Assembly (NCBI GenBank): GCA_051294375.1 | Contig: CM119265.1 | Location: 9,370,772-9,434,771 of the forward strand | Length of the DNA: 64,000 nucleotides | From: Paraspadella gotoi | Taxonomy: Eukaryota > Animalia > Chaetognatha | Direction of reading: 5' to 3' | Position numbers and translations under genes: made by a program | Notes under the pieces: generated by a model | Databases searched by the model: none | What the model was told of the DNA's origin: nothing | What the model saw: only the letters and a program-made list of their open reading frames with translations | Shown: in pieces, positions 12,305 through 62,767 of the stretch | Position numbering within the stretch: the first letter of the stretch is position 1 | Layout of the letters: every line of letters starts with the position of its first letter

Positions 12305-12659
12305 GATTGATGGTGGACTTTCCTGGGTTTTCGCTACATCACCGATTCTGTATTGTTCCAAGCTTACGCAGTTATTACTTATTAATATACACCGATTCAT
12401 CATTAGTATCCTTACAAGATCTCATCTTCCAGCTAGTCAAAACAAATTACCGAATCTACCAACCATAAAAAATATTACTTTTAGTGGTATAACAGTGATT
12501 TGTGTCTGTCTTGATACTAGTTTTTACGCATTCTCTCTGTTTTAATTAAACCGAAACCTCTTTATCTTCAATCTAAAAAAAAAAAGAAGGAATTGGGTTT
12601 TAAGGACAGGCCGAACATTTAGAAAATATTAATGGCTTTCATTGATAATTAAGAGGACA

Positions 12660-15600
12660 ATGAAGACTCCCACGAAACCGGTGGCGTTGCCCGAACGACG
12701 CCGCCGGCTGAGTAGCCGTTCTGAGGCGCCTCAATCCGCCGTCGTCGTGACGCCGCGCCTGGAAGACGCCGAGACGCTTTTTCAGAAGTTGACCATCGCC
12801 GAGATTCAGGAGAAGCGGAAGGAGTTTTACGGAGGAATCGAGACGAAGCGGCAGGAGTTGAGGCTCTTGGTGGGGAAGAGGTGAGGATCTGGAAATTGCT
12901 CTTCTCGCCTTATGTTCAAATTTCAGGGCGAATAAGAAACTCATTTCAGAATTTGTTAAAATTGCATATGTAAAAATACATACCAGAAAAAACCCAAAAT
13001 TCTATCGCGTTTTAATTTTACTTTTAGATATGCTGGCCTCATCGAAGTCGCCGACGGCATCACGGAGATGAAATCCTGCGCCGAGAGCGTCACGTCTTCC
13101 GTTTCCGGTCTTCAACAGATTTGTCAACAATTAAAAAAGCAACAGAAGAGCGGCGCCGTTATTTCGCCAGCGGGCGACGCCTTGCCCGACAGGTAGAAAC
13201 GAGACTTGGAAATATCTGACGAAATCGCGTTCCTTTTCGTTTTACTTATCATTTATTTTTTTGACAGCCAGCGCGAGTTTTATTCAATCACGTCGCAGAT
13301 CAAGCTGCTCGTCACGGTGGCGCCCAAGATGTTCGCTCGTTTAGACGAGAAATCCTATTCGGACGCCGCCGTTCTCTTTTTGCTCGCCAAGCATTTGCAT
13401 CAGGGGCTGAGGCTGGACACTACTGCACACAACGCCACTGCGGTTTTGCCGTTTTTTCCCGGTGAGTATTGAGTACCGATTAGAATCCATTGTAATCTCG
13501 CTTCAATTGATGAATATGATTTCCTTAGTCATTTCCCGTCACTGGCCGGCCATCGCCCGATTTCGTCAGCTGATCGTGGCTTCGTCGCGGACTCAACTTT
13601 CGTCTCCGACGCTGACCGCCGATGCGGCCGTGGACGCCCTGTTGGCGCTTGTGGCTTTGGAGGGCGTTACAGTCCGTCAGGTCTTTGCCGACTTTCTCTT
13701 GGCCCGGACCGAAGCTCTGAATCAGGCAAGCCTAAGACAGCATCTTTCAATTCATGTCATATCCTAAATGTTGAATTGTTTCTTAGGTTTTAGGTTCATC
13801 TTCGGCGACTTTGAGCGTCAAGGATCAACTTCTCCAGGGAATTTCCATCCTCATTCTCTCGTTGAAGCTAGTCTTTGAAATATTCACTTCGCGCGAAAAT
13901 CAAGGTTCGAAATATTAAACTTCTCATTTTATGAATTTTGTTGCCAAGGAAGCGAGCTAAAAACTTAGTAACATTTCGGTCCGCCCCCCTCCATTCCCAA
14001 GAGCCTCGCGAAAACTCGCTCATTTCCCGCCTCGCCCTTCTGTCGTCGTCCACTTCCGCCGTCCTTCGCGCCGACGTCGTTTCCTGTTGCGGCTCCGTCG
14101 TCGCCTCCCATCTTCCCTCGTCGGCGCTGGAATTCAAACCGGCTCTTCGCGGCCAATCGACGCCGATGCCGGAGGAACAGATGCAGGACAGATGTAAAAA
14201 ATGGTTCGAGGTGAGGAAAAATACAATAGGCTATAATACTATGCCAAAGCCGGGTTGCCTGTGATCCCCATTGGGATGGGGCGTCTCACTGTTGGCTTTG
14301 GTGACTTTCAACCCTCAGTGACGCCACCTGTCACTGGCGCAGTTACCCAAGTCTAGGGCCTAGGACGGTCAACGCAGAGGGATTGGCTGAATGAAGCAGT
14401 ATGTAAGGCGGTGTGAATATACCGCCACAATACAATCAAATTAAAAAATGAACCCATTTTATTTTTCGCTGTACAAACGACAGTTCTCACTCTCAACCCT
14501 CCGATCGTCGCTCTCAACCCAATTGGCTTTTGTCTCTTCCGTTATGGGCCTTGCTCACATCCGGGATGTCGCCTTCGACGCTCTGACAGACTCGGATGTC
14601 GTCGGCGACTGGGACCGTGCATCCGAGGAGCTGCTTGGGCGTCGAGTCTGCGTCTGGCGGGAGGCGGTGCGACCACTGGTGGTGGTCAGGTTGGAGGAGT
14701 TGGTGCGAGATGGGATGAGGAATGTGGTTAAGGGGCTAGTGGATGGAATGAAAGTTGCCGGAGGTATGTGAGGATATTGTTTAAGAAATATTTATTATTC
14801 AGTTTTCTTAAACTTACTATTTTCCGTTTTAAAACGACCTACTAGCCACGCCATCTGACGACATTATCTCCTTCATGTGGAGCGAGTCATCAACCGACAT
14901 CCCACGCATCAATTTCGGCGACGGACAAAAGAAAGACGCTGGGGACGACGATGACGACGAATCTCAGCTAACGATGAAGACTAAAGGACGGACGTCCAAA
15001 GTGCAGCAGTTATGCCAGAAGGCGGACGCAGCGTTGAAGGAAGTGCTGCTCGACGCACAACACTTCGCCATCGTGAAGGCCAAAGGTCTTTTAATGAAGT
15101 TTTTGTTTTGTAATGTTTTGTTAAAATACTTTTCAACTCTGGTTTAGACGATGGAGCCACTTTCGACGTCGAAGAGGATGTCTCTCAAGCCTCTATCTTA
15201 ATTACTCGCTGCTGTCATGAAGTTTTTCAGGATCTCTTCTCCTTTCTGGACGAAGAATTGGCGCCTCCCGCACATTCCTCCTCTCGGCCTCATCCTCGTG
15301 CCGCTCGCCTCGTCTTCTTCGGCCGCATCTGCGAGGCTCTCTCCGATCAAGCGCCACACCTTTTTGCAGCTTTAGTGCCATCTGCAGCTTTGGTTGTCGA
15401 CTTACCCCAGCCATCCGTCGCCGATTCATCGCTTAAATCCTCCCTCCGTCGCTCTCTCCATTTCACCATGCGTTCTTCTTCGACGCTCTCTCGATCCAAT
15501 TCGATCGGGCCGGGCGCCCATCATCATAGCGACCAAACCCTCTTCGCCGACGTCAAGGAGGATCTGCTCAAGCGGTTCTGGCTGGCGTGGGAGGCGTGGC

Positions 15601-29220: not shown

Positions 29221-31837
29221 TCATCTTTTAGACTTTTTCCCAGCTTTCCCTCTGGCCTGTCCCTTCACAGCTTTTGACTTTGATTTGGAAGACTGTGATG
29301 AAAGGCCTACATTTCTTTTCATTTGATAGGTAGTTGCATTCTAGTCATCAAAACGTTAATTATGTTGCAGTTGTATAAGAAAGAAAAATCAATGTTTCTT
29401 TAAGTCGATAAGCATTAGTTCTGTACATATATTTTGAAATCGTAGCGTTACGTTACTTACCTCTAAGGAAAGCATGAATACGAAAAAAATAAGAGTTACG
29501 GCCAATTTTAATCATAAATACAGCTGGCATAAAATCCCTGACAAACCAATACTTACGTGCATCATTTAGTTTCATCCAAATCGGAGACAGCGTATCATCT
29601 AGTTGACTTTTCATGGTTATATATTCCATGGTAGATGCCTGAGGATTCTGTTCCAGCCAGCTTTCCTTTTCATTGCATGCTCCATTACAGTAAATCTGAA
29701 AATTTTTTCAAGTTGGTCTACTGTTGTCATTTTCACTAACATTGGTTTTCTCACCTTATCCTCTTTACTGAGCCTTCCTTGAACTTTTTCTGGATCTTGA
29801 AGGGTATCTCTCATATTTTTGATGCTGTCAACCAGGGCCTGCTTAGCCTCTGAGCCATATAATTGACATAAAAAGAATTGTCATTAGTTGTAATTTATTT
29901 ACAAATAAAAAAATTATCCTATACTATAGAAACTTCAAATTTAAATTTTGATCAACTTTTAATTTATGTTAATAATAAAAATACATCGCAGATTATATCA
30001 AAAACATAACATCTCATTTTTTAGGTTTCACATTCGCCGGTCCTTTTGTAGCTTGATTTTCTGTTAAAGTAAGAATTAATTTCTGTAAAATGTTTTCTTT
30101 GATTTGATGTTCTTCATACCTGCCCATTCTAAATATTCTGTGACTTCGTTTTGTTGGTATCGTATGGCTATCTCCCTCGGTCTCTCTCCGTGCGCCGTTC
30201 TCAGTTGCATGTCAGCGTTGCCTTCTACTAACAACTTTATGACGTCCAACTTGCCCCAGGCCGCGGCGTGGTGCATCGCGGTATAGCCTGATTTATTTAA
30301 AACCCCATAAAAATATCCATTTAATCCTGTTCAGTTTCCTTTAATTTTTAAATTAGTTATTTGTAATGTAATATAACTTTATATGCTAAATTAGGGTGAT
30401 TTACAGTATTATTTTTCTCGTTCGTTACATTTCCAGTGGAGATATCTCAGAATCACTTCACTGAAGAGACTTAAATTGTGCCCCATTTTGTATCCCACCG
30501 TCTAGCATTTCCGACGATATCAATTTTTACATAATTGTCTTTGTTATTAATTTCTCTGCCCCAATGAAGTCTTCGAATTTGTGAATCAACTAAGATTTCT
30601 TTACAGTTTACCTTATAATGTTTCACGAATTCACAATCAATTAAAATTTAGTTAAATTTTATTTTAAAAGTATAGTTATAGTTTTATATATAGTTTAAAT
30701 TTAAATTTTAGTTTAAGTTTAGTTAAAAAGTATAGCATGTAAAATGTAGCATTTTGTCTGCTCTAAAAAGTGGTATAGATTATATATTTGTTTAATGCTT
30801 AAGGTACTTTGTAACTTCTCAAACTAATAAGGAAAATATTTTTAAAACGTCTGTTGATTTTATAATTGTTTTTTAATTTGAAAGATTCACAGTTGATATA
30901 ATTCTTTAATATTTTTAATGAATGGCTATAACAAAATGGCTATAACAAAATCTTTTTTTCATGCTTTAAAACTTGTACAGGTTTTATTTTAATGCATTGA
31001 AACATAATATAACTAATCCCTAACTACATTTATAATTATCCCGATAAACCTTTTGTGACTGTCAGTGGTAATTAATTTAAGTAAATCGAATCGATAAAGA
31101 TTCAAATTTGACATTGTGGTGAATCCTAAATATGCCTCCCGTATAGCTTAGTGAAACTCAGCTTGGACAGCTCGTTCACCAACCGTGAGTTCCGGGTTCA
31201 ATCCCCTCACGGTCACACTGGTTAAAGTGTGATGGTGTCGTTATAAACACGCCAATGACATGGGGTGGTCATTGCAGATCCAAAGCATTTAATAAATAAG
31301 CTACCGTTCCCCTGACTTTGGAGGTTTAAGACCTATATTATACGTCATAGAAAATACCAAACAGAGACTTTCAAAACCGGCTAAACTCGAAAAAAATTAT
31401 GCTCTCCAATTATATTTACTTTTGTCCACTAAGTTTAAATATCTATTCCAAAGTATTAGAAATCTCAATTATATCACCATAAACAAAATGGTAACCATTT
31501 TTCTCTTCATTTCTCAACCTTTGGCAGAGGCGGCGTTGAGATTAACTTCTTTGGCGACGAGATACTCGACGATCTCCGTCCTTCCGAGGATCGCTGCCGT
31601 ATCGAGGGAACTTTTCCCATCCCACGGGTCGCGTGTCTCCAGCACCGACCGAAGCTCCTCCTCTGTCATTTCAGGTGGCGGGACTTCCGCAGCCGGGTCT
31701 TCGCCGAAAAGGTACTATCGCCAAAAAATATTGACATTTACCAGCATATGAAACTAAAACTAATACACCTTAGTAAGGCTAAGCCAAAGCCTAAATCACT
31801 CAATGAATAGGAATTTTATATTTTGTAAAAATAACAT

Positions 31838-31877
<40 letters not shown>

Positions 31878-33984
31878 ACATTATACATTAAGCTTATTTA
31901 TTAAATGAATGGATAATTTTTATATTGGTTGTACCAATTTCATTTATATTAGATATTGTGGCGGTATATTCAAACCGCCTCACATCCACCATCCTTCAGC
32001 CAAATCCATTGGCTCAGAGGGGGAACACACCATCCCAGGCGTAGTGTTCCATCCACAGTCCTAACGACTTCCCTCTGTGTTGGAAAAGCGAGACCGTCCT
32101 GGGGTTACCGCGCCAGTGACTGAGGGGGTCACTGAGGGTCGGAGGCCCCCAAGGCCAACAGTGAGATGCCCCATCCCAATGGGCATCACAGGCAACCTGG
32201 CTGTTGCCACAAGTGGTGAGCCCTACTTTCGAACACGCAACCTTCTCAGGGTACGTTACGACAAATGCCTATACCCTGCCGACTTCGGGTACGCTACGAC
32301 AAACGCTATGCCCCTGGGGTACGCTACGACAAACGCCTATGCCCCTACAACTCGCGCTCTCTCTCCCACTATGGTAACAGTCTTGTCAGACACCTCTCAG
32401 GCTTGAGGAACCTGAGTGATGTCTTGGCCCGGGGATCCTGTGGCGGTATATTCACACCGCCTCACGTCCACCATCCTTCAGCCAAATCCATTGGCTCAGA
32501 GGGGAACACACCATCCCAGGCGTAGTGTTCCATCCACAGTAGAGCGTTGAAAATAACAAAATATAACAAATCAAGTGAGTTACATAGCTATTTTAGTGTA
32601 ATGTAGTTTGTAGAATTCGATGGTGATGACCATTTTTTTATATAATTTTATCTTTCTTGTCGAAATGACGGTTTTTAATGTATATAAAATTGTTATAAAA
32701 TAGCAAAACCATTATAAGTTATGATAAATCAAATTATTAAAATTTTATAAATTTATATGAGCTTTTGAAATATAAAAATAAAGACTTATAAAATATTTGG
32801 TAAGTTTATTTCTAAATTTTATGTTTTATAAAAAGTTAGTTAACTATATTTATTAATAATTATGAGTAAAAATTAGGTTAAAGTTAAAAAATAATAATTT
32901 CAAAATTTTTCATGGATTTGCATTCTTTGCAAAAGTTGATATAAGAAAATATAATTTTTATATCAAAATTATGTCATTAAGTTAGTCAAAATTCAGAAAA
33001 CTATAATTTTAAGCCAAAAATTGAAAAATTAAACAAAATAATAGTTTTTAATATTTTTAACCTACTTAATGAAAGAATTTTTTAAAATAAATTATACTTT
33101 CTTATATCAATTTTTTGTAAGGAATTCAAATCCGGTTTTAAAATTTAATTTTTTTTATTTTTTCACTTTAGCTTATTTTTTATTATTATTTGTTATTATA
33201 TAAATATAGTACTAATGCAATAAGTCTATATCAAAATAACTAATTAATTAAATATTATAATATTTTGAAAATGTAAACTTAGCACAAATATTATATATTA
33301 TCTTTATTTTGAGTCTTTATTTTTATATTATGTAAGTTAAATATGGCTTTTATAAAATCTTAATAATTGAGTTTCTTATACTCTACAATGTTTGCTCCAT
33401 TTTAATAGCACTTTATATGCTGCAAAAATCGCATTTCCGACAAAGAAGATGAGACTATACCAAAAAATGGTTATCATCATCGAATCTACAGACTTTATTA
33501 CACTAAAATAGCTATATACCTCACTTGATTTGTTTTATTTCGTTATTTTTCAACGCCTAACGACTTCCCTCTGCGTTGGCAAAGCGAGACCGTCCTGGGG
33601 TAACCGCGCCAGTGACTGGAGGCGTCACTGAGGGTCGGAGGCCCCCAAGGCCAACAGTGAGATGCCCCATCCCAATGGGCATCACAGGCAACCTGGCTGT
33701 TGCCATAATATCTTTATAGTGAATCCAATATCATTTTAAAAATTAATATTATTTCAAATTTGTTGTTTTTAATTTGTAACCCTGACCAGTGACTAATCAT
33801 CACTTGTTTTATAGACCAAATAAAATATTGTTCAAGTTTTAAACTCTTTTCTGAAATTTCCTTCCAGTTGATGCACCTGAAGCTTGCTCAGTTCATTGTT
33901 GACGACGGCCTCGAGAACAAACTCGTGATCGACGGCGAATGCTGTACTTGCGCTTTCAGACACTGAAACCGAAACCTCGGACAT
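29221..33984 (-). CDS. Ankyrin repeat protein, ANKRD45-like, multi-exon
   Basis: Exon 1 33984-33877 (MSEVS...LSKLQ), exon 2 from 31714 (GKSSLDTAAILGRTEIVEYLV), exon 3 GYTAMHHAAAWGKLDVIKLLV...GERPREIAIRY, then DTLQDPEKVQGRLSKEDK; last exon uncertain (stop at 29221 or 28556). Confidence 0.72.
31134..31335 (+). mobile_element. SINE-like element: tRNA-like head, partial twister motif, and tail from another repeat family
   Basis: A-box-like TAGCTTAGTG at 31144, B-box GGTTCAATCC at 31195, then GTGT GA TGG...T^AA ACAC GC CAATGAC..GTCATTG CAGA TCCA AA GC. Confidence 0.65.
32541..33555. mobile_element. AT-rich foldback/MITE-like element with long imperfect terminal inverted repeats
   Basis: GCGTTGAAAATAACAAAATATAACAAATCAAGTGAG...GACCATTTTTT is mirrored by AAAAAATGGTT...CTCACTTGATTTGTTTTATTTCGTTATTTTTCAACGC (about 100 bp or more). 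Confidence 0.8.
33575..33655 (+). ncRNA. Twister ribozyme motif, type P5 (L4 variant TCGG-AG-GC)
   Basis: Same architecture with intact TAA cleavage site; its partner in the 5' LTR (32079-32159) has TAA changed to TTA. Confidence 0.65.
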
Positions 33985-35485: not shown

Positions 35486-38400
35486 TCACAATTCGTCGTC
35501 TGGGTCGTGAGTCTTTTTCGCTTCGTCTCCGCTTGGCTCCCCAGTACTCGAGGGTTCCGTCGGAGGCTGTTCCGCCGGAGGAGGCTCGGATGTTGGCTCC
35601 CCCGATGAAGGCGAATCGGGGGAGGGCGCCTCTGGAGCCTCGGGAGACTGTCGATCGGCGGCAGGAGCCTCGGTCGCCTCGTCCTTTCCAGTTCCCTCTT
35701 CGGATACCGGCGATTCGGTCGGGGGAATGACTTTCTCTTCATTCTTCTTCGCCTCTTCTTCCTTCGCGGGTTCCTTTTTCGGTTTGGGCTTGTGGAACTT
35801 GGCTTTGTTGATGAGATATTTGATCTCTCGGTCCAGCGCCGCCAGCTTGGCCTCGACTTCAGACACGGTAAAAGCCGGCTTCTCGAAGTCTTTCTTCGTT
35901 TTCTGTTTCTCGACAACGACGTCCATCCAAGTTTGGGTCTCCACGTTAAGCTTGGCGAGAGTGTCGAGTTCGACCTCGGTGAAAATCGGATCGTCCGGAG
36001 TAGAATCGCTCAGGTTCTTGCTCATGACTAATATGAGATAAAGGTCAATTGTCGTTTAAGAAATTAAGAGAATGAGCCTTAGTTGTCGCTTCCCTTTATA
36101 CTCACCGTAAAAGTTGTGAGACGTGTTCAGGTGGCTGACAAGCGACTCAATGGCTTTGGGGCGGTTTTCTTTTTCGTTTAGTCGACCAAAGAACTCGGCG
36201 AATTCTTTCTTCAGCTCAGAAAGTTTATCCTTATAAGTTTTGGTTGGGACCTCGGGCCCTTGGTCGAACAACCAGTCGTCGGCCTTATTGAGGGAAGCCA
36301 GGAACGTCTCCCGCTCTTCTTCTAAAAATTTTAATTGAAAAATATTAATTTTTTTTTAAATATAAAAAAAAGCGGCGAAGTCGTTACCCGTCGCGCAAGA
36401 AGCCGTCTCATCCAAGTTCATCTTGTCCTTTGCGTCGTAAATAAAACCCTCGAGTGCGTTTTGAGCCGCCTCGCGCGCCACTCTCTCCGCGTCGGCGTCG
36501 TCCATCCTTTTGAGCGTCTCCCGAGCGAGCTTTAACTCATCAACCGTCATTTCCCTGGTGTCCTCGTAATGAAGCTCGGACGATATAGGTTCCTTTATCG
36601 TAACCAACTTCGGCACCACTTTTTTCGGCTTTTCCTCTTTCGCTTTATCTTTTTTCTCGTCTTTTTCTGTCTTGTTAGCGCCTTCCTTCACTTTTTCTTC
36701 TTTCTTTTGGTCTTTCGCTTCTTCTTTATTTTCTTCCTCTTTTTTGATTTCCGGATTTTCTTCTTTCGTTTTTTCCCCTTTTTGGTTTTCTTGACCACTT
36801 TTAGTTTGTGCTTGACCAGTTTCCTCCTTCGTCGTTTCCTTCTCATTTTCTTTCTTTTCATCATCTTTTCCCTGTTGCTCCTCTTCCTCTTTCTTTTCGC
36901 CAAACATGTTGGAGAAAGCGTCTTTGATCTGGTCAAGCGTTGAAGGTGACGCCTCCGACGCGGCTTCTTCCTCTTTAATCGTCTTCTCGAACAAAGACTC
37001 CACTTTCTCCAGCTGAAGAATTCCACTTTCGTCCATGCGAAAATGAGCTTTCACTCCTGGAAAAATATTTTTCTTTTGCCAATTTTTTAAACATTCATGA
37101 GTAAATATTTGCAAACAGTAAATAGATAAACAAAATTAAACTAATCCCTTTTATACCTTTCGCCTCGACGTCTTCACCACTGTGTTTATCTAAAGCCTTG
37201 TCAACGCCCGCAAGCGCGACCGTCTTTAACTCCCTCCCTCCGAACATGGCCTGATGTTCACCGTCGAGGAACGAGACGTCTCCATAATTTACGCGGACTC
37301 CGAAATCCTTTCGGTGTTTAGGAAAAGTGAGAACTTTGCGTTGCGGGTATGGGTTGTTTCGCGTGAAAAGCACGCGTTTAACTATCTTTCCCGGGGCTTC
37401 AGTGGAATCGGGCGCCGACTCGGACGGAGCGGCCAAGGCGCGTTCGAATTCAACCTAATTTAAATGCTTGAAAATTAAAGTCTTTTCCCGCCCTAGCCTT
37501 CGGTCCCACCCGACCCTTTACCTCGATAGGATAAACGTTAGAGTCTTTGACCAAAAATTTTTTAACTCTAAATCCTTTGCTTAAATGAGCGGCCTGATAA
37601 ACGGCACCCATGGCAGCGGACTCGTCCGTGTTTAAACTCATTCCTAGTTGATCGTGCCCCTTCGCAACCTCGAGGACGTTTTCGCGAACTTTAGGTATGC
37701 GCGTCCCGCCACCGAAGAGAAGAACTTGACTAACGGGGAAAAATAAAAGTTGAGCCGAACAAAATGACTTATTGCATAAGGTATGCGGGAAATAATTTGT
37801 TTTTTCTTTACTTTATCTCTCCCCACGTCATCTCCGATGATTTCATGGCCTCCTCCACCGGCTTCGCGACTCGGGCGAGCAAATCCTGGCACATGCCAAG
37901 AAATTCGTCTCTCGTGACTTTTTGGCGAAAATCTTTTTCCTCTAAAAGTCCCTCGATCTGAGCGTAAGCTTCCTTGTTTGCGCTGAGGATGAGCTTGACT
38001 CTTTCCGCTTCCTTGAGCAGTTTGCTCATTGCCTTTGAATTGGCCGTCACGTCTTGCTTGACTAGCTTCTTCTCGTTGAAAGCCTGGGAGAAGCGAAAAA
38101 GTTTACGGCACGTTTTAGACTAATGGAGTCAATTGCACGAAAAAGTGAGCGACCTTGGCCAAATGATTTCTGAGCCTGAGAGTAAATTCGAGTCCGCCCA
38201 GCGTTCGATCGAAGCCGACGGATTTAATCGTGACTTGAGGATTCGTTTCCGCGAATCCGTTTTCCTTCGTCTGCACCAATTGATAACTGGCGATGGAGGC
38301 GACGGTTGATCGCGCCCCCATGTCGAAGATGAGAAAGTTTTGCGCCGTCGCGTTGAATTCTTTACGTCTGGGAGTGAAAGCGGTTTTTGAAACGAGGAAC

Positions 38401-39595
38401 ATTCAGAACTCGAAGTTGAAAGAAAAAAAATCACTGCAAAGCAACCTGAACTTCACAAATCACTAAAAACATAACTCACCCCTGCCCAAGAAAACTGAAA
38501 AGAAAATAGAACTCGATCTAGATTAGGTCCTGATTGAGTACTATTATGGCAACGGGAGGATAGCCTGTGATACCCGGGGCGCGGGGTATCTCACTAACTG
38601 GCGTAGGGGCTGCGGACCCTCAGTGACCGCCTCCTGTCACTGGCATGTTTATACCGGCACCGTCACATTTAAGCCAGAACCGGGATACCCAGGGATTGAA
38701 CCCGGGACGCACGGATGGAATGAGATGATTTAGCCTGCTCAGCCATTGAGACGAGGCTGAGGACGGACAGCAGTGAGGCAGCTTTAAGTCTTGCTGCCAC
38801 ACTATTCGAATATTATCGACACGTCTCACCTGAAGACGCCATAATTGAGCGCGACGGCGGCGTCGTCGGTCATGAGTTGCAAGAGTTTAATTCCTGCCAA
38901 ATCGCAAGCGGCAGCGACGGCGCGCCTTTCGGCTTGGGAAAAGTAGGCGGGGACGGTGACGACGGCGCCGGCGATGGGCTGCTCCGCGAAGTTTGACGCC
39001 GTATCTTGAGCCTTGTTCAGAATCATCGCCAGAAGCTCCTCGGGACTTAACAAAAAAAGTTTGTCATGGTTCCCATGCATCTTTCAAAAAAAAAAGCCAC
39101 CATAATGAATACCTGAAATCTTCATTGTCGCTTTTCTTTAAAGTAACAGTGCCTCGCCCTTTCTTCTCGCCAAGGGCGATGTGAGGATAGGTCCTACGGT
39201 AATTGTCTACGAGGGGATGGTCCAACGTCTTGGCCAGGAGATCGTTGAGAAACCGAAACGCAGTCGGCGGTCTTTTCATCGAAGCTAAGAATAGAAAAGA
39301 ATAGGAATTTTGTGATTATTTGAATAATTTCGTGCAACAGATTGGTTTCTCTGAGCTCACCCGCCAAAGCGGCGTCCCCGAAGGATCGCTCCCCATCTTT
39401 GAACGCCACGATGTTGGCAGTTTTACGTCGGCCCTCTTTGTTGAGCGCGATTTCCATGGGAACGCCCGGCTTGACGATGGCGATTTTGAGGAACTCGCTT
39501 CCCAAGTCTACCGACATAACGGCCAAGGGCGACACTACCGTCGCCCAGTTACACAGCAAGAGTGATACCGTCGCCGCGAACCAACACCCCCGCAT
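35486..39595 (-). CDS. HYOU1: Hypoxia up-regulated protein 1 (GRP170, ER Hsp70-family nucleotide exchange factor), multi-exon
   Basis: Signal peptide then AVMSVDLGSEFLKIAIVKPGVPMEIALNKE, VTVPAYFSQAERRA, ALNYGVFR, DRTLGG, acidic/Lys-rich insert, C-terminal DDEL ER-retrieval signal. Confidence 0.95.
38545..38801 (-). mobile_element. Solo LTR of a divergent sister family
   Basis: Termini TGTGGC...GTTGCCATA, 257 bp, TSD CTAT on both sides, same series of hairpins with compensatory changes; in a HYOU1 intron. Confidence 0.88.
38598..38677 (-). ncRNA. Twister ribozyme motif, type P5 (divergent family; P2-P5, T1 and T2 fully paired, P1 minimal)
   Basis: CTGGC TTAA ATGT GA CGG TGCCGGTA T^AA ACAT GC CAGTGAC..GTCACTG AGGG TCCG CA GC CCCT AC GCCAG. 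Confidence 0.87.
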
Positions 39596-40441: not shown

Positions 40442-43400
40442 ATGGGGGCCAGATTCACTCTTGAAAGCCTCGATCTACGGAATTCTTCATCCCTCGTTCC
40501 CTCTTTCGACGAGGTCACCTTCCATAGACTTTCTCCGGCTCACCTGGTGCCGCCTTTGTTCTCAGGGACCGCGACCGCGACCGACTCTCGCGATGTTTCG
40601 CCGGACGTTGATTCCCCGATAACGTCAACGACAACGGCCTCTTCCAGCGCGCCTTCATTCTACGACCTCTGTCGACAGATTTTGGCGATCGTCCAACAGG
40701 TCGCCGCTCGTTTGCCGCTCGACGCGACGACTCCGTCGAGGGAGTCGACGACGATGTCCGGGCGGCCCGACGGCCAACCCGCGAGAGACGAGGAAGACGC
40801 CTTCGACGACGATATAGCTGACGCGGACGCCGTAGCGGGAAGCGACTCCGCAGCCGGAGCTGCAGAAAACGAGCAGCGTCGAGAATCGGACTCTGACTCG
40901 AGTCAGGTCGACCTCGCCAGAATCCTCCGCTTCCTCCTTCGCACCGGTCAAGTCAGATTCATGGCCGGTCAACCTTGGATCGATGGCACCAGCAGAGTAG
41001 GTGAGTACTTTCTTCTTTAATTAATATACTAATATTGTACAAGGTGACACACGAAAACCCGCCCCAAGGAAAAAATCGTCATTTGCAAAGCTGTTAATAT
41101 TTTTTTAATCTGAAATATTTTTTCTTTAGTAAAAACCAAAATCATTTATATATTCAAATTTCATATTGAGTGGTTATGATTTGACTTAGCAATGAGCGGG
41201 AAAAAATTGCTTTAAAGTCGTCTTTGATTTAAAAATTTGTTTTTTTATTTTTATTTTTTTCAATTTTTTTATTTAATTTCCTGAACATTTTTTAAAAAAC
41301 TTTTTTTAAGGCTCTTGGAAATTTGAAGAAAATTACATATTTAAGAATATTGTAAATGAAAATAAGTTTAACCACCTTTAGTTAAATAAAGTTTATCAAA
41401 AAATTTTCACAAGTTTGAAAATGATAATTTTTTTCTAGCGGCGGGTTGTCGTGTGTCACCTTGTAAAGACCTGATTAATACCAGTACCTCCACAACTTCA
41501 ACCTGATTGTCTCTGTCTTATGATATTAGTTAAAGTACAGGGACTTCAATCTGGAGCGTTACAAAAAGAATTGATTAAACTCGTAATTCTTTCACAGTAT
41601 ACTATTTTTATAACATTTTTTAGTTAATGAAAATTTTATTTTCAATAGATTTTAAAAGGAACATTTAATGATTATTAAGTATTATTAATGTTATAAAATA
41701 TTTTTGTTATTCTTTTGTGATACATGCATACGGTATATTCACACCGCCTCACATCCACCATCGTTTAACCAATCCCATTGGCTCAGAGGGGGAACGCACC
41801 ATCCCAGGCTTTGCGATCCATCCACAGTCCTAACGACTTCCCTCTGCGTTGGCAAAGCGAGACCGTCCTAGGGTAACCGCGCCAGTTACAGAAGGCGTCA
41901 CTGAGGGTCGGAAGCCAACAGTGAGATGCCCCATCCCAATGGGCATCACAGGCAACCCGGCTGTTGCCATAGTAACAGATTGAAGTCCCTGTATGTAATT
42001 TTACTTTCGCCGACCGGGGTTAGTGTGGTGAAGGGTTAATGGTGGTTTAGGGATAGTTTAGGGTTAAGAGGGGTTAGGATAATTAGGTAATATTTTTTTT
42101 AATAAATATTTTTAAATAGTTTTTTAAAAGACGCCAAAACCACGGTCGGCGAAAGTAAAATTTTGCCGAAACGGCTCCTTTCATGCGCAGAATTCCAAAT
42201 GATCACTAGCAAGAGAGACGATGAGGTGTAAGTCAATATCTTGTTTGTCAGGGAAGAAAAAGAGCTTCGATGAATTCGATTTATTTTACAGAAAAATGGC
42301 GGTCGAATAGAATTACTGAATTATTTTTCATGCCCCTTAAATTGATGCGAATCAGTTAGTCACGGAGACCTTATCAATCTGAAAAACTTTTTTGAAACTT
42401 ATTGATTGGCAGACATGAATTACGAAGAGGGCATCGGATACGGCGACGATGATGACGATTCTGATTACGTCGCGTCCGACGACGCCAATGATTCCGACTC
42501 GGACGACAATCGCGTCGTTCATCAGCCTGAGCCTGACCCCGCCCCGGATCTGCAACGTTTACAATCCTCGGATCTCATGCAGGTTTTCGCCTTGGATTTT
42601 CTCTCCTGAACTTTTAATCCTACCAATTAATTCAATTGTTTTCCCATTCTAGGAAATCCTTCAAAATTCTGGCCGAGGTCCCCTCTCCAACATCTCCACT
42701 TGCTGCATCCCGAAGCCGAGCCTCCGCTGTCTCGCCGGCAACTACCTCGTTTCCACGCGCACCATGTCGGCGGCCAATTCGGCCCAAGACATTCCCCGTC
42801 AGTCTTCTTCGACCGATCTTGCCTTCGATCCGAGCGACGCCGCCGAGGGTGATGCCTCCGGCACCCGGGCCGTCGGGTGCGTGCCCACGTGCTTCGGACG
42901 CTTCCGAAAGCGAGCGCAGGCCGCCAAGCGGGAAGAGGAAGAAGCGGAAAGATCGAAGAGAGAATTAGCCTTGAAAAGACAAGGCCTGCAAGGAAGGTAT
43001 GAATCACGTCTCAGGCTCGTTGGCGAAGGGAGTTTTCTCAAAACATGTTTATTGCAATTTCTTTTCACTCAGCGTGGGCTTTCGGAATCGTCCATTCCCT
43101 GTTGTGTTGCGGGATCGCGAGCTTGGTCTCCGTGGGGCTCGATGCAAGACGTCGCGCGGCATTTGGATGCTGGGCGATTGCAGTGCCATCTCCTCCATGT
43201 TTTTGCCCAACAAACCTTCGAGGGTTGCCGAGTTTGGGCGGTAAGTTTGATATTTATACGTTGTATTTTGACTTTCTTTTTGCTAATTAAAATAGTTTAG
43301 AGATGAAACGAAAAATTCGTTGGAATAGCACTTGCTGATGAAGACTCGTACCACTAAGAGACGAAACATGTACAATATTAAAAATAAATTGCTATTCCAA

Positions 43401-46105: not shown

Positions 46106-49100
46106 ATGTATCGTCCCTCGCCCCATGAAGTCGTTGGGTTCCCGCCACCTCCTTGCCGTCCGTCCAGCATTCCCGCGTCCCGCCTCGCCTTTCCGGCTCG
46201 CCCCGGGTTCCGCGCGGGGCGTAAAAAGGTCCCATACGTGGCCCCGCCCCGGGCAATGGGACGCGAGAGCGAAGGAGAGTGGGTAAACGTTCGCGGCGAC
46301 GCCGACATCGGCGCTGATGGCGGCGGCAGAGCGGAAGAAACGGCGGTGAAAGAGATGGAGCCGACTAAGGACGCCGCCGTGGAGTTTGTGAAGAGCATGG
46401 AAAAGTGCCTGAAGGTATTTTTCCTGCGGTTTGTATCGTAATTAAGTTTTTTTTTATCTCGCCAGACGGGCTTAAAAGTGTGATATCATCGGAAGCTAAA
46501 AATTTAGATATGGCTTCTCATCATCGAGATCTTTGAAATGGTCATGTTCCATATCAATACTCGGATTTGTTTGTTTTATTTACAAAACAATACTACAAAT
46601 TACATTTTGTTTCTCTCTTTTTCTCCGTCGCTGTTTCTTATTCGTCTAAAAACGAGGTCAGCTCTGCAGCGGCTGGAGTTCTCTCTCTCATTCATACACG
46701 CATTTGTTTGTTTTATTTACAATGAATGACTATCATCGCGTCAATGAATGACTATCATCGCGTCAATGAATGACTATCATCGCGTCAATGAATGACTATC
46801 ATCGCGTCAATGAATGACTATCATCGCGTCAATGAATGACTATCATCACGTCAATGAATGACTATCATCGCGTCAATGAATGACTATCATCGCATCAGTG
46901 AATGAACTATCATTGAATAAATAATTGGTTATCATCTTGTCAATAATCAATTATTATTACATTAATAATCTATTATTATTACATTAATAATCTATTATTA
47001 TTACATTAATAATCTATTATTATTACATTAATAATCTATTACTATTACATTAATAATCTATTACTATTACATTAATAATCTATTACTATTACATCAATCA
47101 TTCGTTTTTTTTTCCGGATTTTTTAATTTTTTTTCTTTGATAGTAGCGAGATCAATATATTTTTGAGATTTGTTTTTATTTTGATTTTGCTTCCACTTCA
47201 AAGGATTTCTACGTCTTCTTCGGCGAAAGCGATTCGGAAGAGTCGGACTTCTCGGGATTCGACGACGAAGAAGTTGATCGTTCAGAGAGAGACGCCGACG
47301 ACTCCTACGTCAAAACCCTCGACGACGTCACCGTCGAAATCGATAAGCAGCGACGCGGCGAACTTGATGAAGACGAACACTATGAAGAATCTCCATCCGA
47401 GCTGCCCAAAGGCGACCGCGTCCAAAAGAACGCTTCTCGGTCCCACGATCACATACCACGCACGCTCGGTCGTGACACTTCCGTTCGTTCCTCCAAACAA
47501 TCCAAGTTCTCGAAGCGACCTTCTCCAGCCCTCATATCGACAACCTCGACCAAGCGGCGTTGCTCCGATCGTCACGCTTGTCTCGACGAGCAGTCGGCAT
47601 CTTCCGACAGTCGTCGCTCGGATCGGCTCGCGGGGGCCACGCCCGTCGCAGATAGAGACGACGCGCCGACTTCAAGAAAGAAAAGGGTTTCCGGAGCAAA
47701 TACGATGCTGGACGCTAAAATGTCTCCAACCGCTCGGACTGATTTTCCGCCGACGACGCCAGTCGCTCCCTTCCGCGGCCGATTGAAGAGCAGAACGACT
47801 TCCGTTTCTAGTGACTCGGCGCCGGATTCCTCGGAGGCCACCCCCGCTCGCACCGGCGACTCCGCCGCGTCCACCGAAAGCCCGGCGCCGCTTTCTTCCC
47901 CGGGCACGCCGCTTATTGTTAGCGGAAAGCGGGAGAGAAAACCCTCGATGAAGATAAAGATGATCGCTGCCGACCACACCGGACGAGCTGCTGGAGAGAA
48001 GATGAAGAAGTTAGGAAAGATGAACGAGTGCCACGGCTCAGGTGGTCATAAAGCGATGACCAATGGGTTTAAGAAATTGTCAACCGAAGAATCAATTTTT
48101 AAGCCCGCTGGGAAAAGACCAAAGATGGAGCCTGTTGACGAGAATACGCTTTTAGGCGTGGCTGAATCTGCTGGACCTCTGCCGCAAACAGCTGAAGACC
48201 CTTCCGAAATGTCCGACGTTCTCGATTCAATCAATGACCTAAGTAGCAAATTCTCGGAAGTCGTCGTTGGCAGACTGAAGAGCGTTTTGGCCGCCAATGC
48301 TTACCCCAACGCGTCGGAACGAGCCGATTTAGCGGCGGAGTTGGGCTTGCAGCCTAAGCAGGTTCGAAAACGGAAATTTCTGAAATCTCGAGACAAGGAA
48401 GAAACGAGTTTGTCTTATAGTGTTGCAAATTACTTATTTCAGGTCAAAAATTGGTTCGAACGTCAACGCAAGAAACTAAAGAAAATATCCCCAGATTTGG
48501 TTCTGGCCAGTTCCCCCCAACCTCACAAGCCAAAAAGCGAGCGACGCCCCTCCATGTCTCCGCCCTTGAAAGCCTCGACGACCGACTCCAATGATTTTCC
48601 GGACGACGACGACGACGCGTTAGGCGAGTTGAAAATCGATCTCGACGCTCTGCCCGACGAAGAGGGCGTGGACGAAACTTATCAATCTCTCTTGAAACTC
48701 CCATCCCGCCCGCCTCCTTCGCCCGTCGGCCTCTCTGACAATCGAATACTTCCAAGTGCCTCCGCCTCGTCCCCGGCCGTCGTCAAGAAGAAAAGGGGCG
48801 AGTTGTTCCCGCGTCCCGCGTTGATAAAACTGTGGGAGATGCTTATTCGTCACAAGGATCATCCTTTCCCTTCGCTCGAAGAAAAACAGCGCGTGGCCAA
48901 AGAGGCGGGGCTTGCCCTCAATCAAGTCTCCAAGTGGGTATTCTTCGCGCGGCAGAGAAAATATCTCCAGATGCACGACAGGATCGAAGGCTTGGAGAAT
49001 TTTATAGAAAAGAAATATTTCAGGTAGGTTTTTGAAAACGCGAGAAAGTCTTCGACAGAACCATATATCAAGGCTCAAGTTAGTTCCTTTAACCCCGGAA

Positions 49101-52100
49101 CTTCTTTTCTCTCTTTTCTATCTTCTGTCTTTCTATCTTTCTCTTTTATATATTTTTTTTCATATTTTCGTTTCAAAAGTCAATTTTTGCCAATTTTCAA
49201 AATTCCATCGCGATTTTCCATCTATGCTTCTTCTTTTTCCTCTTCCTCCTTTTTGCTTCTTTCTCATTGGAAATGAGCTACGTAGCCCAATGATTCTTTT
49301 TCTTTTTTTTCCTTGGATTTACGAAAATACGTGATTTAGATATTTCGTAGTACTTTTCTTTAGAAAGATGAAATTTATATAATGAAATGGTTACAAACAA
49401 TATAAAAATTTTCCATTCATTTAATAAATAAGCTATCTTGCCCCTGACTTTGGACAGGCTTTGGTGGTTTAAGGCCTACATCACTCTTACAAGATAAAAA
49501 CAATCAAGACTTTCTCACAGTCTTGTTTATTCACTCCCAGAGAAACTGGCTTTCCGATCAATGAAGTGGTATTTTTACCGACAGACAGACTAACAGATCA
49601 TAAAGTGAGAGTCACGACTGTAGCCGTGTCTAAAAATATGTGTACTTAATACTTATCTAGAACCTGTCAAATATGTACTGACGGGAGTAAAAACGATTTT
49701 CATATGGTAGAAGAACCAGTATCAACCTCTGGTAAAAACTGGTTATTCATAGTAGGTTTCAAATTTTGAAAATATTTTTTTACAGTATGATTTTTTTCGT
49801 TTGTAACAGCCCAAGACAGCATATTCTATGCAACTGTAAACTCTATAGTAGAGAGTTAAATGATAGTCGGTTTTGAAGGTTGTGGCAACAACAACACGTG
49901 GCCTTACCAGATCAAGCGATCACTATACTTTTAAGATTTTTTAAAGCTGTACTGATTCACTGTATTCATTTGTAAAGTGATAGTACGCTTGAGAAACTCT
50001 GTATAATATAGCATATATGCAATGAGTCTTCTTTATTTGGTGACTGATTATTAAGAGGTTGTCGAGTTTGAAACTTTGATTCAATTTTTCAATTTGTGAT
50101 TATTAAAAAGTAGTTAAAATATAACAAAAAATAATTTATAAAATTAAATAAAATTTTTTTGAGGACGAGAAGTTAACATCCCTCCTAACTGCAAGGCTTA
50201 ACTGCTAGAAACCGGGACCTTTGGGTTGGGAGGCGAAGGCCTTACCTCCTGCACCAATGGCCACTGATGAACAGTTGGTGGATCTTAGTCCACCATAATA
50301 TATATATATATATATAAAATTGAAACATTCTTTGAAACATTATACCACTTCATTGATAGGGAAGCCAGGTACTCTGGGATTGAATAAACATGACTGTGAG
50401 AGTGTCGTGATTGAAAGCTTGCAGGGATGTGCTATGTCATTATTTTGTAAGAGTGATGGAGGCCTTAAACCACCAAAGCCTGTCCAAAGTCAGGGGCAAG
50501 ATAGCTTGTTTATTAAATTAATGGATAATTTTTATATTGGTTGTACCAATTTTATATTCATAAATGCCCGACGACGAGCTACAAAATGATCCACAATTTA
50601 GATCTCTTGGGTGAATGGATTCTGAGATATCTTCACTGGAAATGTTACAAACAAGAAAAATCATACTGTATTATCCATAAATTTTCAATTAATAAATCAT
50701 CTTCCAGGAAAGCCTCGACCACTCCTAATTTACGCGTTCGCAAATCTAAATCCGTCCCTTTACCCGCGATGGTGGAGAAGAGACTCCGGCCAGAATCGAC
50801 GAGCGTGCTGAAAACTTGGCTCCTCTACCGCAAAGACAGTCCGATCCCTAGTCACGACGAACTGTCTACCATCGCTTCCAAAGCCGAAGTTCCTCTTCAC
50901 GAACTAGAAACCTGGTTCAAGATGCGCTACGAGGACGGCTGGACGGGCGACTTCGACGTCGTCAGGCTCAGCTCCTTCCAAGACCTCGACCGAAAAGAAG
51001 AGCCCGCGAAGAGGAGTGTCGTAAAAAGCAAAGTTTGTTATTGAGTAATTTGGTTGATTGCTCTCCGTTAATTAATTCCAATGCTCTTTCGTCTGTGTTA
51101 AGGAGCAACGGGTCAAAAAATTAAGATTGAGAAGAGCGCAGGGCGACGTTCTCCGCTCGTGGCTCTACCGGAACCGCGCCCATCCCGAACTCACTGAAGA
51201 CGACTTTCGCGAGTTAGAGGCGGCCACGTCGTTGAACGCCGACGAGATCCAGAGATGGGTCGACTTCGCCGTCAAAAAAGGAGTTCCTCGTCGACTCACC
51301 ACCGTCTGGAAGAAAAAAGGAGAGGCTTTCACGGACAGGGTCAGTGATAAAGTTTTTATTTTCGAATCCTTGATTAAATAATAAATATGTTACGATGTTA
51401 TTCATTTTTCTATCCATAGTTTTTACCAGCCAAATCCGTGAATATCCTCAAAAGATATTTGCTTCGAAATCCGCATGTCATTCAACCAAATTGGGAAGAC
51501 AAGCAAAAGCTGTGGAAGAAGACGGGTTTGACAATGAAACAGGCGAGTAATAGCAAACTCTGCTATTAGGAATGAACGCTCCATTTTTTACGACGAACAT
51601 TTTTTTTAAATGATTTTTCAGATTCAGATATGGTTCGCAAAAGCGAATCAGCGGGACTTGCGGTCGCGCATCTTCGCCCAACGCGCGGTGTCGGGGATCA
51701 AGAGGCTCGAATGGGAGGACGAAGAGGATCCTCCGACGGAGGACGAGAGTCGGTCGGAGATCGTCGTTGAGTCGGGAGAGTCCAAGTCGAAGGTGACTGA
51801 GGTTAGTTAGTAGGTTAAGAGGGAGTCGTTTTGTTAGTGTTTTAAACATAGAATTATTAGAACCATTCCCATTGAACATTGTAATCTTATATTCGATTTC
51901 GTTCGCTCTTTCACAGATCTCCCGTCGCCCCGTCTCCATCCGATCTCCGCGCTTCTGTTTCTCAGACGACGACGTTGCTTCCATCTCCTTAACTTCGACC
52001 TCTTCATCGTCTTCTTCTCTCATTCCTGCTTCGGCCTCTCGCCACCTCCTCCTCTCCCTTTACCGTCGTCGAACTCACCCTTTCGTCGACGCGAGGGAGA

Positions 52101-54766
52101 AGCTCCGCCTCTCCCGCGTCACCAACCTTCCTCCACGCCGAATTCTCCGATGGTTCCAGGAGGCGCGCGCCAAAAAGTGGGCCCGGAAGTTGAGATTGAC
52201 GCTGAAAGATGGAGTCGTCGTCGCCGCGGAAGAAGACGGTGGCGTCGGTGACAAGACGGCGACGAAAAAGAAACGCGACGATGTGGACGAAGCGATCGAA
52301 GACGCCATTTCTCTCATTCCGACGTTGCGTACGGCCGTCGCTAAACTAACGCCCAAATCTCCCGACGTAAGCAGTGACGCGGGTGGCGTGACCGCCGACG
52401 ATGTGCTTGAAGAAGACCTCGACCTCAGCTCGTCTTCCTGTTCGTCGAATCGCTCCAACGATGCCTTAGATAAGAACGACCTAGCGATGTTGCAAAACGG
52501 ATCTCTGACTGGAGCGTTGAGGACCGCGATGCGGACCAACGGAGATCACGGCGGCGTCGGCGGCGAAGGTGGCGAAGCGGAAGATGAAGAGTTTGTGGAG
52601 GAGGCTGACGATGACAACGACGACGCCTTCGAAACCGATTCGCCTTCCCTTTATCCGCCGCCAGAATATTTTCACTCCGTCGTCCCTCAGACGGACGGCA
52701 TCACAGAGGATCAGCTTGTCCGTCTCTCGATGATGCTCTTTAACCACAGGGGAGAGGCCTTCCCTGATCCATCCGCGAAGGAGTTGGAGGAGGCGTCGGC
52801 GGAGACAGGATTGAAAGAGGAGTTCGTGAGAGACTGGTTCGAGAAGTGTGTCTCTGACGGCATTCACGCCAACATGGAGAGGTGAGGAAGGAAGATAGAA
52901 ATTCAATAGAGATGAGTCTTGAAATGTTGAGAAAATAATGAAACTAATTCTATTGTTTTCCTTTGTTTTGTTTTTCAGCGTCAGTAATAAAAATTTGCGA
53001 CTTCCACCTCGCGATTTGGACCGCAACTCAAACCGAACGGCGCCCTTGCCAGTGGTGCCACATCGTCGTGCTCGTTACCCCGTCCATGTCACCAACGCCC
53101 TTAAAACATTTCTGCTCGAGCGACGAGTGCTTTTCCCCACGGCGGCAGACCTCCTCGCCCTCACGTCGACCACGGGACTGTCGACGAAGCGATTGCGAAA
53201 CTGGTTTGGACAGGCGCGAAGCAAGCATCTCCTACACCAGCTCATCGCCGAGAAATGGAAACCAGAAGACGACGATGGAGGCGAGGGGATCGCCGGAGGG
53301 AAAGATCTCAGTTTTGTCGACGACGGTGGCGACAGCATCGGCGGTAACGGCGATGATGCTCCCTTTTCTCCCAGCTCCGTCGACGACAAAACTACGAGCC
53401 GGTCAAAACGGGTCATCAAGCCGGCAAAGCGCTTCATCGAAGAGCACGAAGCTATGCTGTCCAGCGCCAAAGCGAAGCGGCGCGATTCGACGCCTTCCTT
53501 TGTGACGGAGGAGACGGGCACCAACAACAACGACAAAGAGACGAGGTTGACGCTGGAAGAGATTCAGGAGAGGGTGCTTAATTTGCCCAATTCGTTGCAA
53601 GGTAGGTTAATACATCGTAGTATGGCAACAGCCGGGTTGCCTGTGATGCCCATTGGGATGGGGCATCTCACTGTTGGCTCTGGGGGCTTCCGACCCTCAG
53701 TGACGCCTCCAGTCACTGGCGCGGTTACCCTAGGACGGTCTCGCTTTGCCAACGCAGAGGGAAGTCGTTAGGACTGTGGATGGAACACTACGCCTGGGAT
53801 GGTGTGTTCCCCCTCTGAGCCAATGGATTTGGCTGACGGATGGTGGACGTGAGGCGGTGTGAATATACCACCACAGGATCCCCGGGCCAAGACATCACTC
53901 AGGTTCCTCAAGCCTGAGAGGTGTCTGACAAAACTGTTACCATAGTGGGAGAGAGAGAGAGAGCGCGAGTTGTGGGGGCATAGGCGTTTGTCGTAGCGTA
54001 CCCCAGGGGCATAGGCGTTTGTCGTAGCGTACCCAAAGTCGGCAGGGCATAGGCGTTTGTCGTAGCGTACCCTGAGAAGGTTGCGTGTTCGATAGTAGGG
54101 CTCACCACTTATGGCAACAGCCGGGTTGCCTGTGATGCCCATTGGGATGGGGCATCTCACTGTTGGCTTTGGGGGCTTCCGACCCTCAGTGACGCCTCCA
54201 GTCACTGGCGCGGTTACCCTAGGACGGTCTCGCTTTGCCAACGCAGAGGGAAGTCGTTAGGACTGTGGATGGAACACTACGCCTGGGATGGTGTGTTCCC
54301 CTCTGAGCCAATGGATTTGGCTGACGGATGGTGGACGTGAGGCGGTGTGAATATACCGCCACAGTAGCCAAATTTAATGCTGTTAACGTGGTGTATGTTA
54401 AGGTTGTTAAAACTTACCTTTTTTAAAATTTTCTTTCGTTATTTTTCTTTCTTTCATCTTTGTTTCGTCCTTATTTTTTAATCGGATCAGCTTATCAGCA
54501 CATCCCGACTCTATAATTCACTTTGTCGGTCCGCCCCCTCAATCTTGTCGGGCATTCACTTATATCATGTCAGAACATCGAATTATGATAAATTATCTGT
54601 AATTCCATTCAGAAAAACAAATTTTTGATTTTCACAATGAATTTATTTAATTATGAGCAGACATCTTTCGAACATTGTTCTGTTCTTCATCAGTGCAATA
54701 TTTCAGTTTGAATTACAAAATTTTGGTAAGTTAAAAGTGAGAGAGGAAGAGGGAGACAGAGAGTGA

Positions 54767-62505: not shown

Positions 62506-62767
62506 TGTGACAGTACATTCACACCGCCTCACGACCATAATCGTTCAGCCAATCCCATTGGCTCAGAGGGGGAACACACCATCCCAGGCGTAGTGTTCTC
62601 TCCGCAGTTCTAACGACTTCCTTCTGCGTTGGCAAAGCGAGACCGTCCTAGGGTAACTGCGTCGGCGACTGGAGACGTCATTGAGGGTCGGAACTTGGAA
62701 GCCCCCAAAGCCACCATTGATATGACCCATCCCAATGGGCATCACAGGCAACCCTACTGTTACCATA
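62506..62767 (+). mobile_element. Diverged solo LTR of the TRIM family
   Basis: TGTGACAG...TACCATA, homologous along its length; imperfect TSD GCAT/CCAT. Confidence 0.85.

Follow-up and report, generated by a model that had tools for sequence, protein, structure and literature searches.

Predicted twister ribozymes behind tRNA-type Pol III boxes in the LTRs of a high-copy TRIM family of the chaetognath Paraspadella gotoi

We describe a high-copy, non-coding TRIM family in an animal genome, whose LTRs carry tRNA-type boxes followed by a predicted twister ribozyme. The family was analysed in a 64 kb window, the stretch of 64,000 nucleotides of Paraspadella gotoi contig CM119265.1 to which all positions refer, and three LTR subfamilies, here called main, divergent and 31115 type, were compared (Table 1). 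The promoter part alone makes the element a member of Helenus/TRIMp3; the novelty is the twister in both LTRs of an animal TRIM. Judged by sequence, the divergent type clearly has the predicted promoter; for the 31115 type it is likely, and for the main type doubtful. As the best overall explanation we slightly favour an RNA that would be made by Pol III, cut by its own twisters, probably circular, and copied by a CsRn1-type Gypsy partner. Sequence data were the assembled contigs of DNA run X1, possibly the source of the window's DNA, and of runs X9, X10, X11 and X13; X9 was taken to be RNA by guess, and one host intron is spliced out in an X9 contig.

The main subfamily has a non-coding two-LTR TRIM structure and the divergent type is seen only as a solo LTR; neither a full two-LTR divergent copy nor an autonomous partner was seen in the window. 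In the main copy at 54363-53621, LTRs of 254 and 255 bp (98.8% identical) with TGT...ATA ends enclose an internal region of 234 bp. Target-site duplications are of 4 bp, perfect in four of six copies, with three of four letters in one and none in one. The primer-binding site is present in both full copies and matches the tRNA-Trp site of the CsRn1 clade; a literature search with its letters gave no match. The polypurine tract is poor, with five purines ending 3 nt before the 3′ LTR. The stem at the LTR 5′ end forms a hairpin in the main LTR fold and is absent from the minimum-energy fold of the divergent LTR. At about 31286 the 31115 LTR is cut short by part of another repeat. We also observed three copies of a ~28-nt repeat in the internal region (53975-54072, minus strand), each a small hairpin and together a possible packaging signal. 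The 1015-bp insertion at 32541-33555 is AT-rich with imperfect inverted ends and likely a non-autonomous DNA transposon. On the plus strand, a homeobox-like ORF (52923-53771; PF05920, under the curated cut-off) runs into the antisense 3′ LTR; the TRIM at 53621-54363 seems to have been inserted a few codons before the old stop of this ORF, adding ~50 residues.

Table 1. Positions in the window of the TRIM copies, their predicted signals and their setting
Feature	Position	Strand	Remarks
Divergent solo LTR, 257 bp, TGT...ATA ends	38545..38801	-	Duplication ATAG
Stem at divergent LTR 5′ end, 6 bp	38777..38798	-	Pairs differ from the main family's, pairing kept
Hairpin, 7 bp, with A-box as 3′ arm	38738..38761	-	38761-38755 with 38744-38738
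Divergent A-box TGGCTGAGCAGG	38734..38745	-	Full match to tRNA consensus
T-arm, 5-bp stem and 7-nt loop	38689..38705	-	Holds B-box GGTTCAATCCC (38702-38692)
Divergent B-box GGTTCAATCC	38693..38702	-	
Type-P5 twister, divergent LTR	38598..38677	-	Core 38668-38605; predicted cut 38651 (U) / 38650 (A)
Hairpin in LTR 3′ part	38569..38590	-	Kept with changed pairs in main family
Host intron holding divergent solo LTR	38368..38829	-	X9 contig splice joint 38367-38830
Full-length main TRIM, 743 bp	53621..54363	-	Duplication CTAC; LTRs 54363-54110 and 53875-53621
Main A-box TGGCTCAGAGGG	54299..54310	-	Full consensus match
Main B-like motif GTTCCATCC in 3-bp stem-loop	54267..54275	-	One core mismatch, short spacing
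Twister core, main 5′ LTR	54171..54233	-	Predicted cut after 54216
Primer-binding site TGGTGAGCCC	54098..54107	-	2 nt behind 5′ LTR
T4 run private to this copy	53930..53933	-	Within the 54363-53621 copy
Twister core, main 3′ LTR	53682..53744	-	Predicted cut after 53727
Predicted unit-length RNA, 489 nt	53727..54215	-	Between the two cuts
Second full main copy	31957..33707	+	Duplication ATAT; 3′ LTR interrupted by insertion
Main solo LTR, decayed	62506..62767	+	Duplication 3/4
Main solo LTR, altered 5′ end	41726..41971	+	Deletion in twister
Main solo LTR, both boxes deleted	14240..14429	-	Duplication GTAT
5′ fragment, third LTR type	31115..31286	+	A-like box 31144, B-box 31195, twister from 31227
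tRNA-Gly(TCC) gene	56276-56347	-	Internal reference for A-to-B box spacing

Internal promoters of tRNA type consist of an A-box (TRGYNNARNNG) and a B-box (GGTTCRANNCC), 30-60 nt apart. Both boxes of the divergent LTR have exactly the letters and positions that the preliminary description had given them (38745-38734 and 38702-38693). Perfect A+B pairs occur three times in the window, two in tRNA-Gly (56347-56276) and one in the divergent LTR, where the A-to-B distance of 43 nt equals that of tRNA-Gly. Markov shuffles of the window contained no such pair (0 in each of 10), nor did any of 3000 shuffles of the 5′ half of the divergent LTR, and a strict B-box appeared behind the fixed divergent A-box in 8 of 5000. 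The number of strict B-boxes is not unusual by itself, because shuffles give 0-4 and the whole window holds three (in tRNA-Gly, at 38702 and at 31195); both of those outside the tRNA are located 22-24 nt upstream of a twister. The boxes of the divergent LTR are real and beyond chance. The stem of the surrounding T-arm has a probability of 0.73-0.78 in folding, and the arm is identical to that of the window's tRNA-Gly at 12 of 17 positions without gaps. By eye, 19 of 20 letters agree with a stretch in the LTR of the nemertean Helenus-1_LiLo. The tRNA likeness is limited to boxes and T-arm: the 72-nt box stretch gave no cloverleaf fold, and neither ARAGORN nor Rfam called a tRNA on it. An Rfam scan found no 5S match in the LTRs, the boxes being of tRNA type. 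A tRNA-type promoter with a twister behind it, as first proposed for this LTR, is well supported by sequence (perfect pair, 43-nt distance, T-arm and twister descriptor), and the divergent subfamily probably has a working Pol III promoter.

The main family contrasted with this profile. Its boxes had been placed at equivalent positions, and for the A-box this is correct: it is homologous and fully matched, at LTR position 54 (57 in the divergent LTR) and 95-96 nt from the cleavage site (95 in the divergent LTR). The B-like motif GTTCCATCC is another matter, as it carries C at R57 and lies 8-9 nt closer to the A-box than the divergent B-box (A-to-G53 distance of 35-36 nt versus 44), and an equally good match behind a fixed A-box was obtained in 569 of 5000 shuffles, that is, at chance level. 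An unforced main/divergent alignment did not set the motif on the divergent B-box (5/11), and forcing it there costs 1 point (91 versus 92). Pol III transcription of this commoner subfamily is doubtful because its B-box is at chance level, and a working Pol III promoter would be a rather questionable assignment here.

In the 31115 element, an A-like box with one mismatch precedes the B-box by 51 nt, at a place not homologous to that of the divergent A-box. The B-box itself is identical in 11 of 11 positions between the divergent and 31115 LTRs, versus 18/31 and 13/23 in the adjoining parts. What had been reported as a 31134 element does have the motifs at 31144 and 31195; the element starts at 31115, however, and is a broken 5′ LTR fragment. 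Conservation of the boxes across copies, suggested earlier as a check, gave no variable site within them, yet this decides nothing: none of the 7 variable sites of the divergent LTR (at least 3% in X1) falls within 23 box positions (P 0.51, not significant) and, among the variable sites listed for the main LTR, none of 18 falls within 21 box positions (P 0.20, not significant). Restriction to the 5′ half, chosen afterwards, gave P 0.07.

These observations bear on whether the boxes act as a promoter at all. The element could be a promoterless retrozyme, its boxes relics or RNA structure and its unit RNA cut by the twisters from host read-through or intron transcripts. The B-box has decayed in the most abundant subfamily, and the A-box is a hairpin arm in both subfamilies (7 bp, with a 6-bp counterpart in the main family), a rival reason for its conservation. 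In addition, a changed pair preserves a 3-bp stem around the T-loop in the main family, and in the divergent family the single T-arm variant replaces a G.U by a G-C pair (position 38691, 8.3% of X1 depth); both hint at RNA-level selection. The available part of a review likewise describes retrozymes as seemingly without promoters and using read-through (PMC7761336). Against this, the divergent LTR has lost the D, anticodon and acceptor stems of a tRNA and yet retains perfect boxes with the spacing of a tRNA, and the 31115 LTR keeps its B-box letter for letter while 2 of 5 T-arm stem pairs are lost. We regard a promoterless element as unlikely overall, although this reading may apply to the main subfamily even where Pol III transcription holds for the divergent one.

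The twister was identified with a descriptor that follows the twister consensus and the Rfam line: a cleavage loop with UAA, a GA that includes the general-base G, pseudoknots T1 and T2, and stems P2 and P4 in the order of type P5. The LTRs show the type-P5 anatomy of this descriptor, and the self-cleaving motif is found in both LTRs of the main copy, with activity predicted. Four matches were obtained in the window, all in LTRs of this element, and none in 20 shuffles; a looser descriptor was unspecific (10 matches versus 0-13 in shuffles). Across six aligned copies, cells that pair make up 92.4%, and double-sided changes occur in 7 of the 22 pairs, with two of the three pairs of pseudoknot T1 among them. 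No shuffle out of 500 scored as high, but this control overstates the case, because the rows represent three subfamilies and the structure was read off the same sequences. A model built from the six copies recovered all nine LTR twister regions of the window. It also scored a type-P1 twister in metagenome contig L004 at E 2.5e-11, a match that is not fully independent because the contig was fetched with a pattern from the same motif. Descriptor and covariation confirm the predicted type-P5 twister, and we consider it very probable that the element is a TRIM with an active ribozyme.

The Rfam twister model RF02684 gave no match on these LTRs at E up to 1, and the Rfam scan found no hammerhead in the LTRs of the window. 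The predicted ribozymes have flaws, with a P1 of only 2 bp and one P2 mismatch in the main family, and their pseudoknots are intact; natural twisters tolerate flaws in P1, P2 and most of P4 but not in the pseudoknots, according to the accessible text of PMC11662667. The twister stems do not appear when the divergent LTR is folded without pseudoknots (P5 0.0-0.01; z -1.07). The 31957 copy has TTA in place of TAA in its 5′ twister, and the 31115 twister, its last strand replaced by another repeat, is probably impaired. A search for viral and metagenome relatives with the twister pattern was discarded: it gave no viral contig and four metagenome loci, of which three look like chance and one is an unrelated type-P1. 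The last (1188-1250 of L004, minus strand) is a canonical-looking twister in an AT-rich contig, and its P3 arms are the same as in the 31115 element.

A second AT-rich repeat family is present at 50340-50550 (+), 49572-49373 (-) and 24047-24216 (+), with fragments at 31891-31943 and 31287-31322; a reversed fragment of this repeat replaces the 3′ end of the 31115 LTR. It has its own type-P5 twister-like motif at 50452-50494, with a weak Rfam match (E 0.32), in which both pseudoknots pair and AC/GT replaces GC/GC. Neither A/B boxes nor duplications were seen in this family. Elsewhere, a tandem array with a 22-nt unit occupies 46720-47134.

Termination signals were also considered. The preliminary description had seen no T4 run on the minus strand of 54363-53621, and in this copy there is one, TTTT at 53933-53930; the claim is right for nearly all other copies. 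At 53932, 589,766 of 592,769 summed X1 depth (99.5%) and all X9 depth read another base, and the 31957 copy has TCTT at the equivalent position. Main and divergent LTRs contain neither T4 nor AATAAA. Lack of T4 is also expected by chance (2099/3000 and 2829/3000 shuffles), so that it permits read-through by Pol III without supporting it, and it was rejected as an argument. In the five copies checked, the distance from the LTR end to the first T4 of the flank is 27-213 nt.

That the twister trims the leader, as proposed earlier, is half of the story, since the same twister stands in the 3′ LTR. With no T4 or AATAAA in these LTRs, the twister would also define the 3′ end. The predicted unit RNA between the two cuts folds at -168.7 kcal/mol (z -1.74; 4 of 100 shuffles as stable). 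As both cuts are at the same LTR position, this RNA would lack a terminal repeat. That suggests a circular intermediate of retrozyme type, and by analogy such a circle seems reasonably probable.

The explanation that we favour would proceed as follows. TFIIIC would bind the boxes and Pol III would start roughly 7-20 nt before the A-box, then read through both LTRs to the first T4 of the flank; the positions of the T-runs are observed, their use is presumed. Both twisters are predicted to cut at U|A. This would take off the flank tail as well as some 100 nt of leader, and the remaining 489-nt RNA would carry 5′-OH and 2′,3′-cyclic phosphate. A host ligase, as in plant retrozymes, would close this RNA; closure is proposed because the RNA offers no terminal repeat for strand transfer. 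Primed by tRNA-Trp, reverse transcription would then travel round the circle and yield a two-LTR cDNA longer than one unit, and a CsRn1-clade integrase would insert this cDNA with 4-bp duplications. We tentatively put forward the element as the first LTR retrozyme of an animal, and also as the first to carry a twister. In this three-part chimera a tRNA-derived Pol III promoter, twin twisters replacing terminator and R repeat, and a tRNA-Trp-primed circle copied by a CsRn1 Gypsy element would act together.

Pol III could instead produce a linear RNA that undergoes canonical strand transfer, only the 3′ twister cutting, as a terminator, and the ~100 nt from start to cut serving as R repeat, as in Cassandra. 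Folding of the main element gives P5 and P3 probabilities of 0.30 and 0.40 in the 5′ LTR context versus 0.61 and 0.61 in the 3′ context, and the Cassandra RNA is described as bearing short terminal duplications in the available text of PMC10886601. The nascent 5′ transcript ending behind the twister, on the other hand, forms P5 and P3 at 1.0 and 0.99, making co-transcriptional cutting likely; moreover, both twisters have the same core and the folding ignores pseudoknots. The folding speaks both ways, and a linear intermediate of this kind appears distinctly improbable. An ordinary Pol II LTR with incidental boxes and with TATAAA as promoter is highly improbable, even though two of three LTR types have this motif (the divergent type at LTR position 149, the 31115 type at 128) and LTR promoter activity was reported for a plant retrozyme (PMC9695139, in the part available), given that TATAAA, which the main family lacks, belongs to the twister as its cleavage motif, that no LTR has AATAAA, that a start behind TATAAA would fall inside the ribozyme and that the perfect A+B pair is left unexplained.

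The copies were also examined through the sequencing runs. X1 gave 1713 contigs on the divergent LTR versus 9784 on the main stretch, which makes main the commoner subfamily. Loose ends of X1 contigs cluster at 38542-38545 and 38801-38802 and lead into flanks that differ from each other, as expected of many independent insertions; on the main stretch they likewise cluster at the LTR borders, again with differing flanks. On the LTRs the summed depth exceeds that of the flanks by a factor of thousands and suggests thousands of copies, depth itself being no copy number. At 54077-54118, contigs of X1, X9, X10 and X11 share the LTR end and primer region and continue into a different internal sequence. 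Among X11 contigs, some lead from the internal region into another LTR start (53899) and some connect the primer region with another LTR end. These alternative joins possibly represent other subfamilies or an autonomous partner; a 15-nt motif of the second internal region is absent from the window.

Summed X9 depth is about 5,000-14,000 on the divergent LTR versus 220 on host exons. The X9/X1 ratio is 0.030-0.070 at 54103-54207, behind the predicted cut, versus 0.014-0.018 at 54313-54375, the LTR 5′ end. Neither was retained as transcript evidence: the bin 54292-54312 is high too (0.041), and the pattern is missing from the divergent LTR. X9 depth was not counted because contigs show no level, start or end, and slight DNA carry-over would suffice. 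Minor variants are rarer in X9 than in X1, and the samples differ. For X10, X11 and X13 each stretch had 1-6 contigs, and with so few a relative cannot be distinguished from carry-over.

The divergent solo LTR lies on the sense strand of a host intron, so that its predicted twister could cut the pre-mRNA. In a Pfam scan the exons flanking this intron (38368-38829) match PF00012, which places them in an Hsp70-family gene that we take to be HYOU1-like; a separate Pfam scan of one exon gave no match. The intron (minus strand) is still spliced in run X9. The window also contains a myosin-XVIII exon, whose best named matches are in molluscs (47-50% identity), which makes a spiralian host likely. 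A sigma-70 promoter scan was set aside as not applicable to animal DNA.

Among known systems, the Cassandra-like logic proposed earlier holds in that a Pol III-type promoter lies in a TRIM LTR, but Helenus is closer, the boxes being of tRNA and not of 5S type. Cassandra and Ajax (5S-type TRIMp3) share an internal Pol III promoter in the LTR; they differ by 5S-derived A/IE/C boxes, and the available text mentions no ribozyme in them (PMC10886601). Helenus TRIMs (TRIMp3; Kojima 2024) carry tRNA-derived LTR boxes, from which Pol III use was inferred (PMC10886601). As far as the accessible text goes, they resemble the present element in that they measure less than 1.3 kb, carry A/B boxes in the LTR and a tRNA primer site, and in animals make 4-bp duplications and have a Gypsy partner. 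That text mentions no ribozyme in Helenus, the word occurring only in a reference (PMC10886601), and a motif search of the available Helenus supplement sequences did not find the primer site TGGTGAGCCC. Most Helenus LTRs compared, among those available, retain more of a tRNA-like body and stop shortly behind the T-arm, in many cases with a T-rich run, whereas here only boxes and T-arm remain, followed by the twister and about 150 nt without T4. The LTR of the ctenophore Helenus-1_MLe differs in that a long tail follows its B-box.

The second half of the plan resembles plant LTR retrozymes, described in the parts available of PMC4918200 (Cervera 2016) and PMC7761336 as non-coding, with a ribozyme per LTR, a primer site, 4-bp duplications, a Gypsy partner and a unit RNA. 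They use type III hammerheads (hammerheads also in PMC9695139) and tRNA-Met, in contrast to the type-P5 twister, tRNA-Trp site, animal host and Pol III-type boxes found here. The same review, in its accessible text, has plant retrozymes circularising, with a tRNA-primed Gypsy reverse transcriptase making more-than-unit cDNA, and animal retrozymes lacking LTR, PBS and PPT, with no promoter evident (PMC7761336). Schistosoma SINE-like hammerhead repeats likewise combine, in an animal, a Pol III promoter with a self-cleaving ribozyme behind it, but are described, in the part available, as non-LTR tandem repeats with a hammerhead, without primer site and in need of tandem copies (PMC6765202). Similarly, Perere-3 variants have a twister with weak or variable P1 in an animal retrotransposon; theirs, in the text available, is of type P1 at the 5′ end of an autonomous non-LTR element transcribed from host promoters (PMC8501958). 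The CsRn1 clade (PwRn1, AgCR) shares TGT...ATA ends, a tRNA-Trp primer site and 4-bp duplications and differs in being made of autonomous 5-kb elements with gag-pol (accessible part of PMC2582038); a CsRn1-clade Gypsy element is the likely partner. The available text of a plant survey reports type-P1 twisters enriched in Copia and Gypsy elements and does not place them in LTRs (PMC11933835), and in the part available a 2026 paper on sugar beet refers to Helenus and to retrozymes without linking the two (PMC13570524). No twister inside an LTR and no animal LTR retrozyme was found in the open-licence papers and preprints searched, among which uncompared Helenus sequences could hide a case.

Taken together, the preliminary observation is largely correct and its reading plausible. 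The element joins the predicted Helenus-type promoter and the LTR retrozyme plan in one animal element, with a third ribozyme class. The twister gains a candidate role in LTR retrotransposition, the ties found so far in the literature being to non-LTR elements only, and copies on the sense strand of host introns could cut pre-mRNA. A single 743-bp construct would open up both Pol III recruitment by tRNA-type TRIM promoters and LTR replication without a terminal repeat. If the proposed retrozyme scheme is true, the main subfamily, whose B-box has decayed and whose copies are more numerous, would show that an element with twin ribozymes can shed its promoter.
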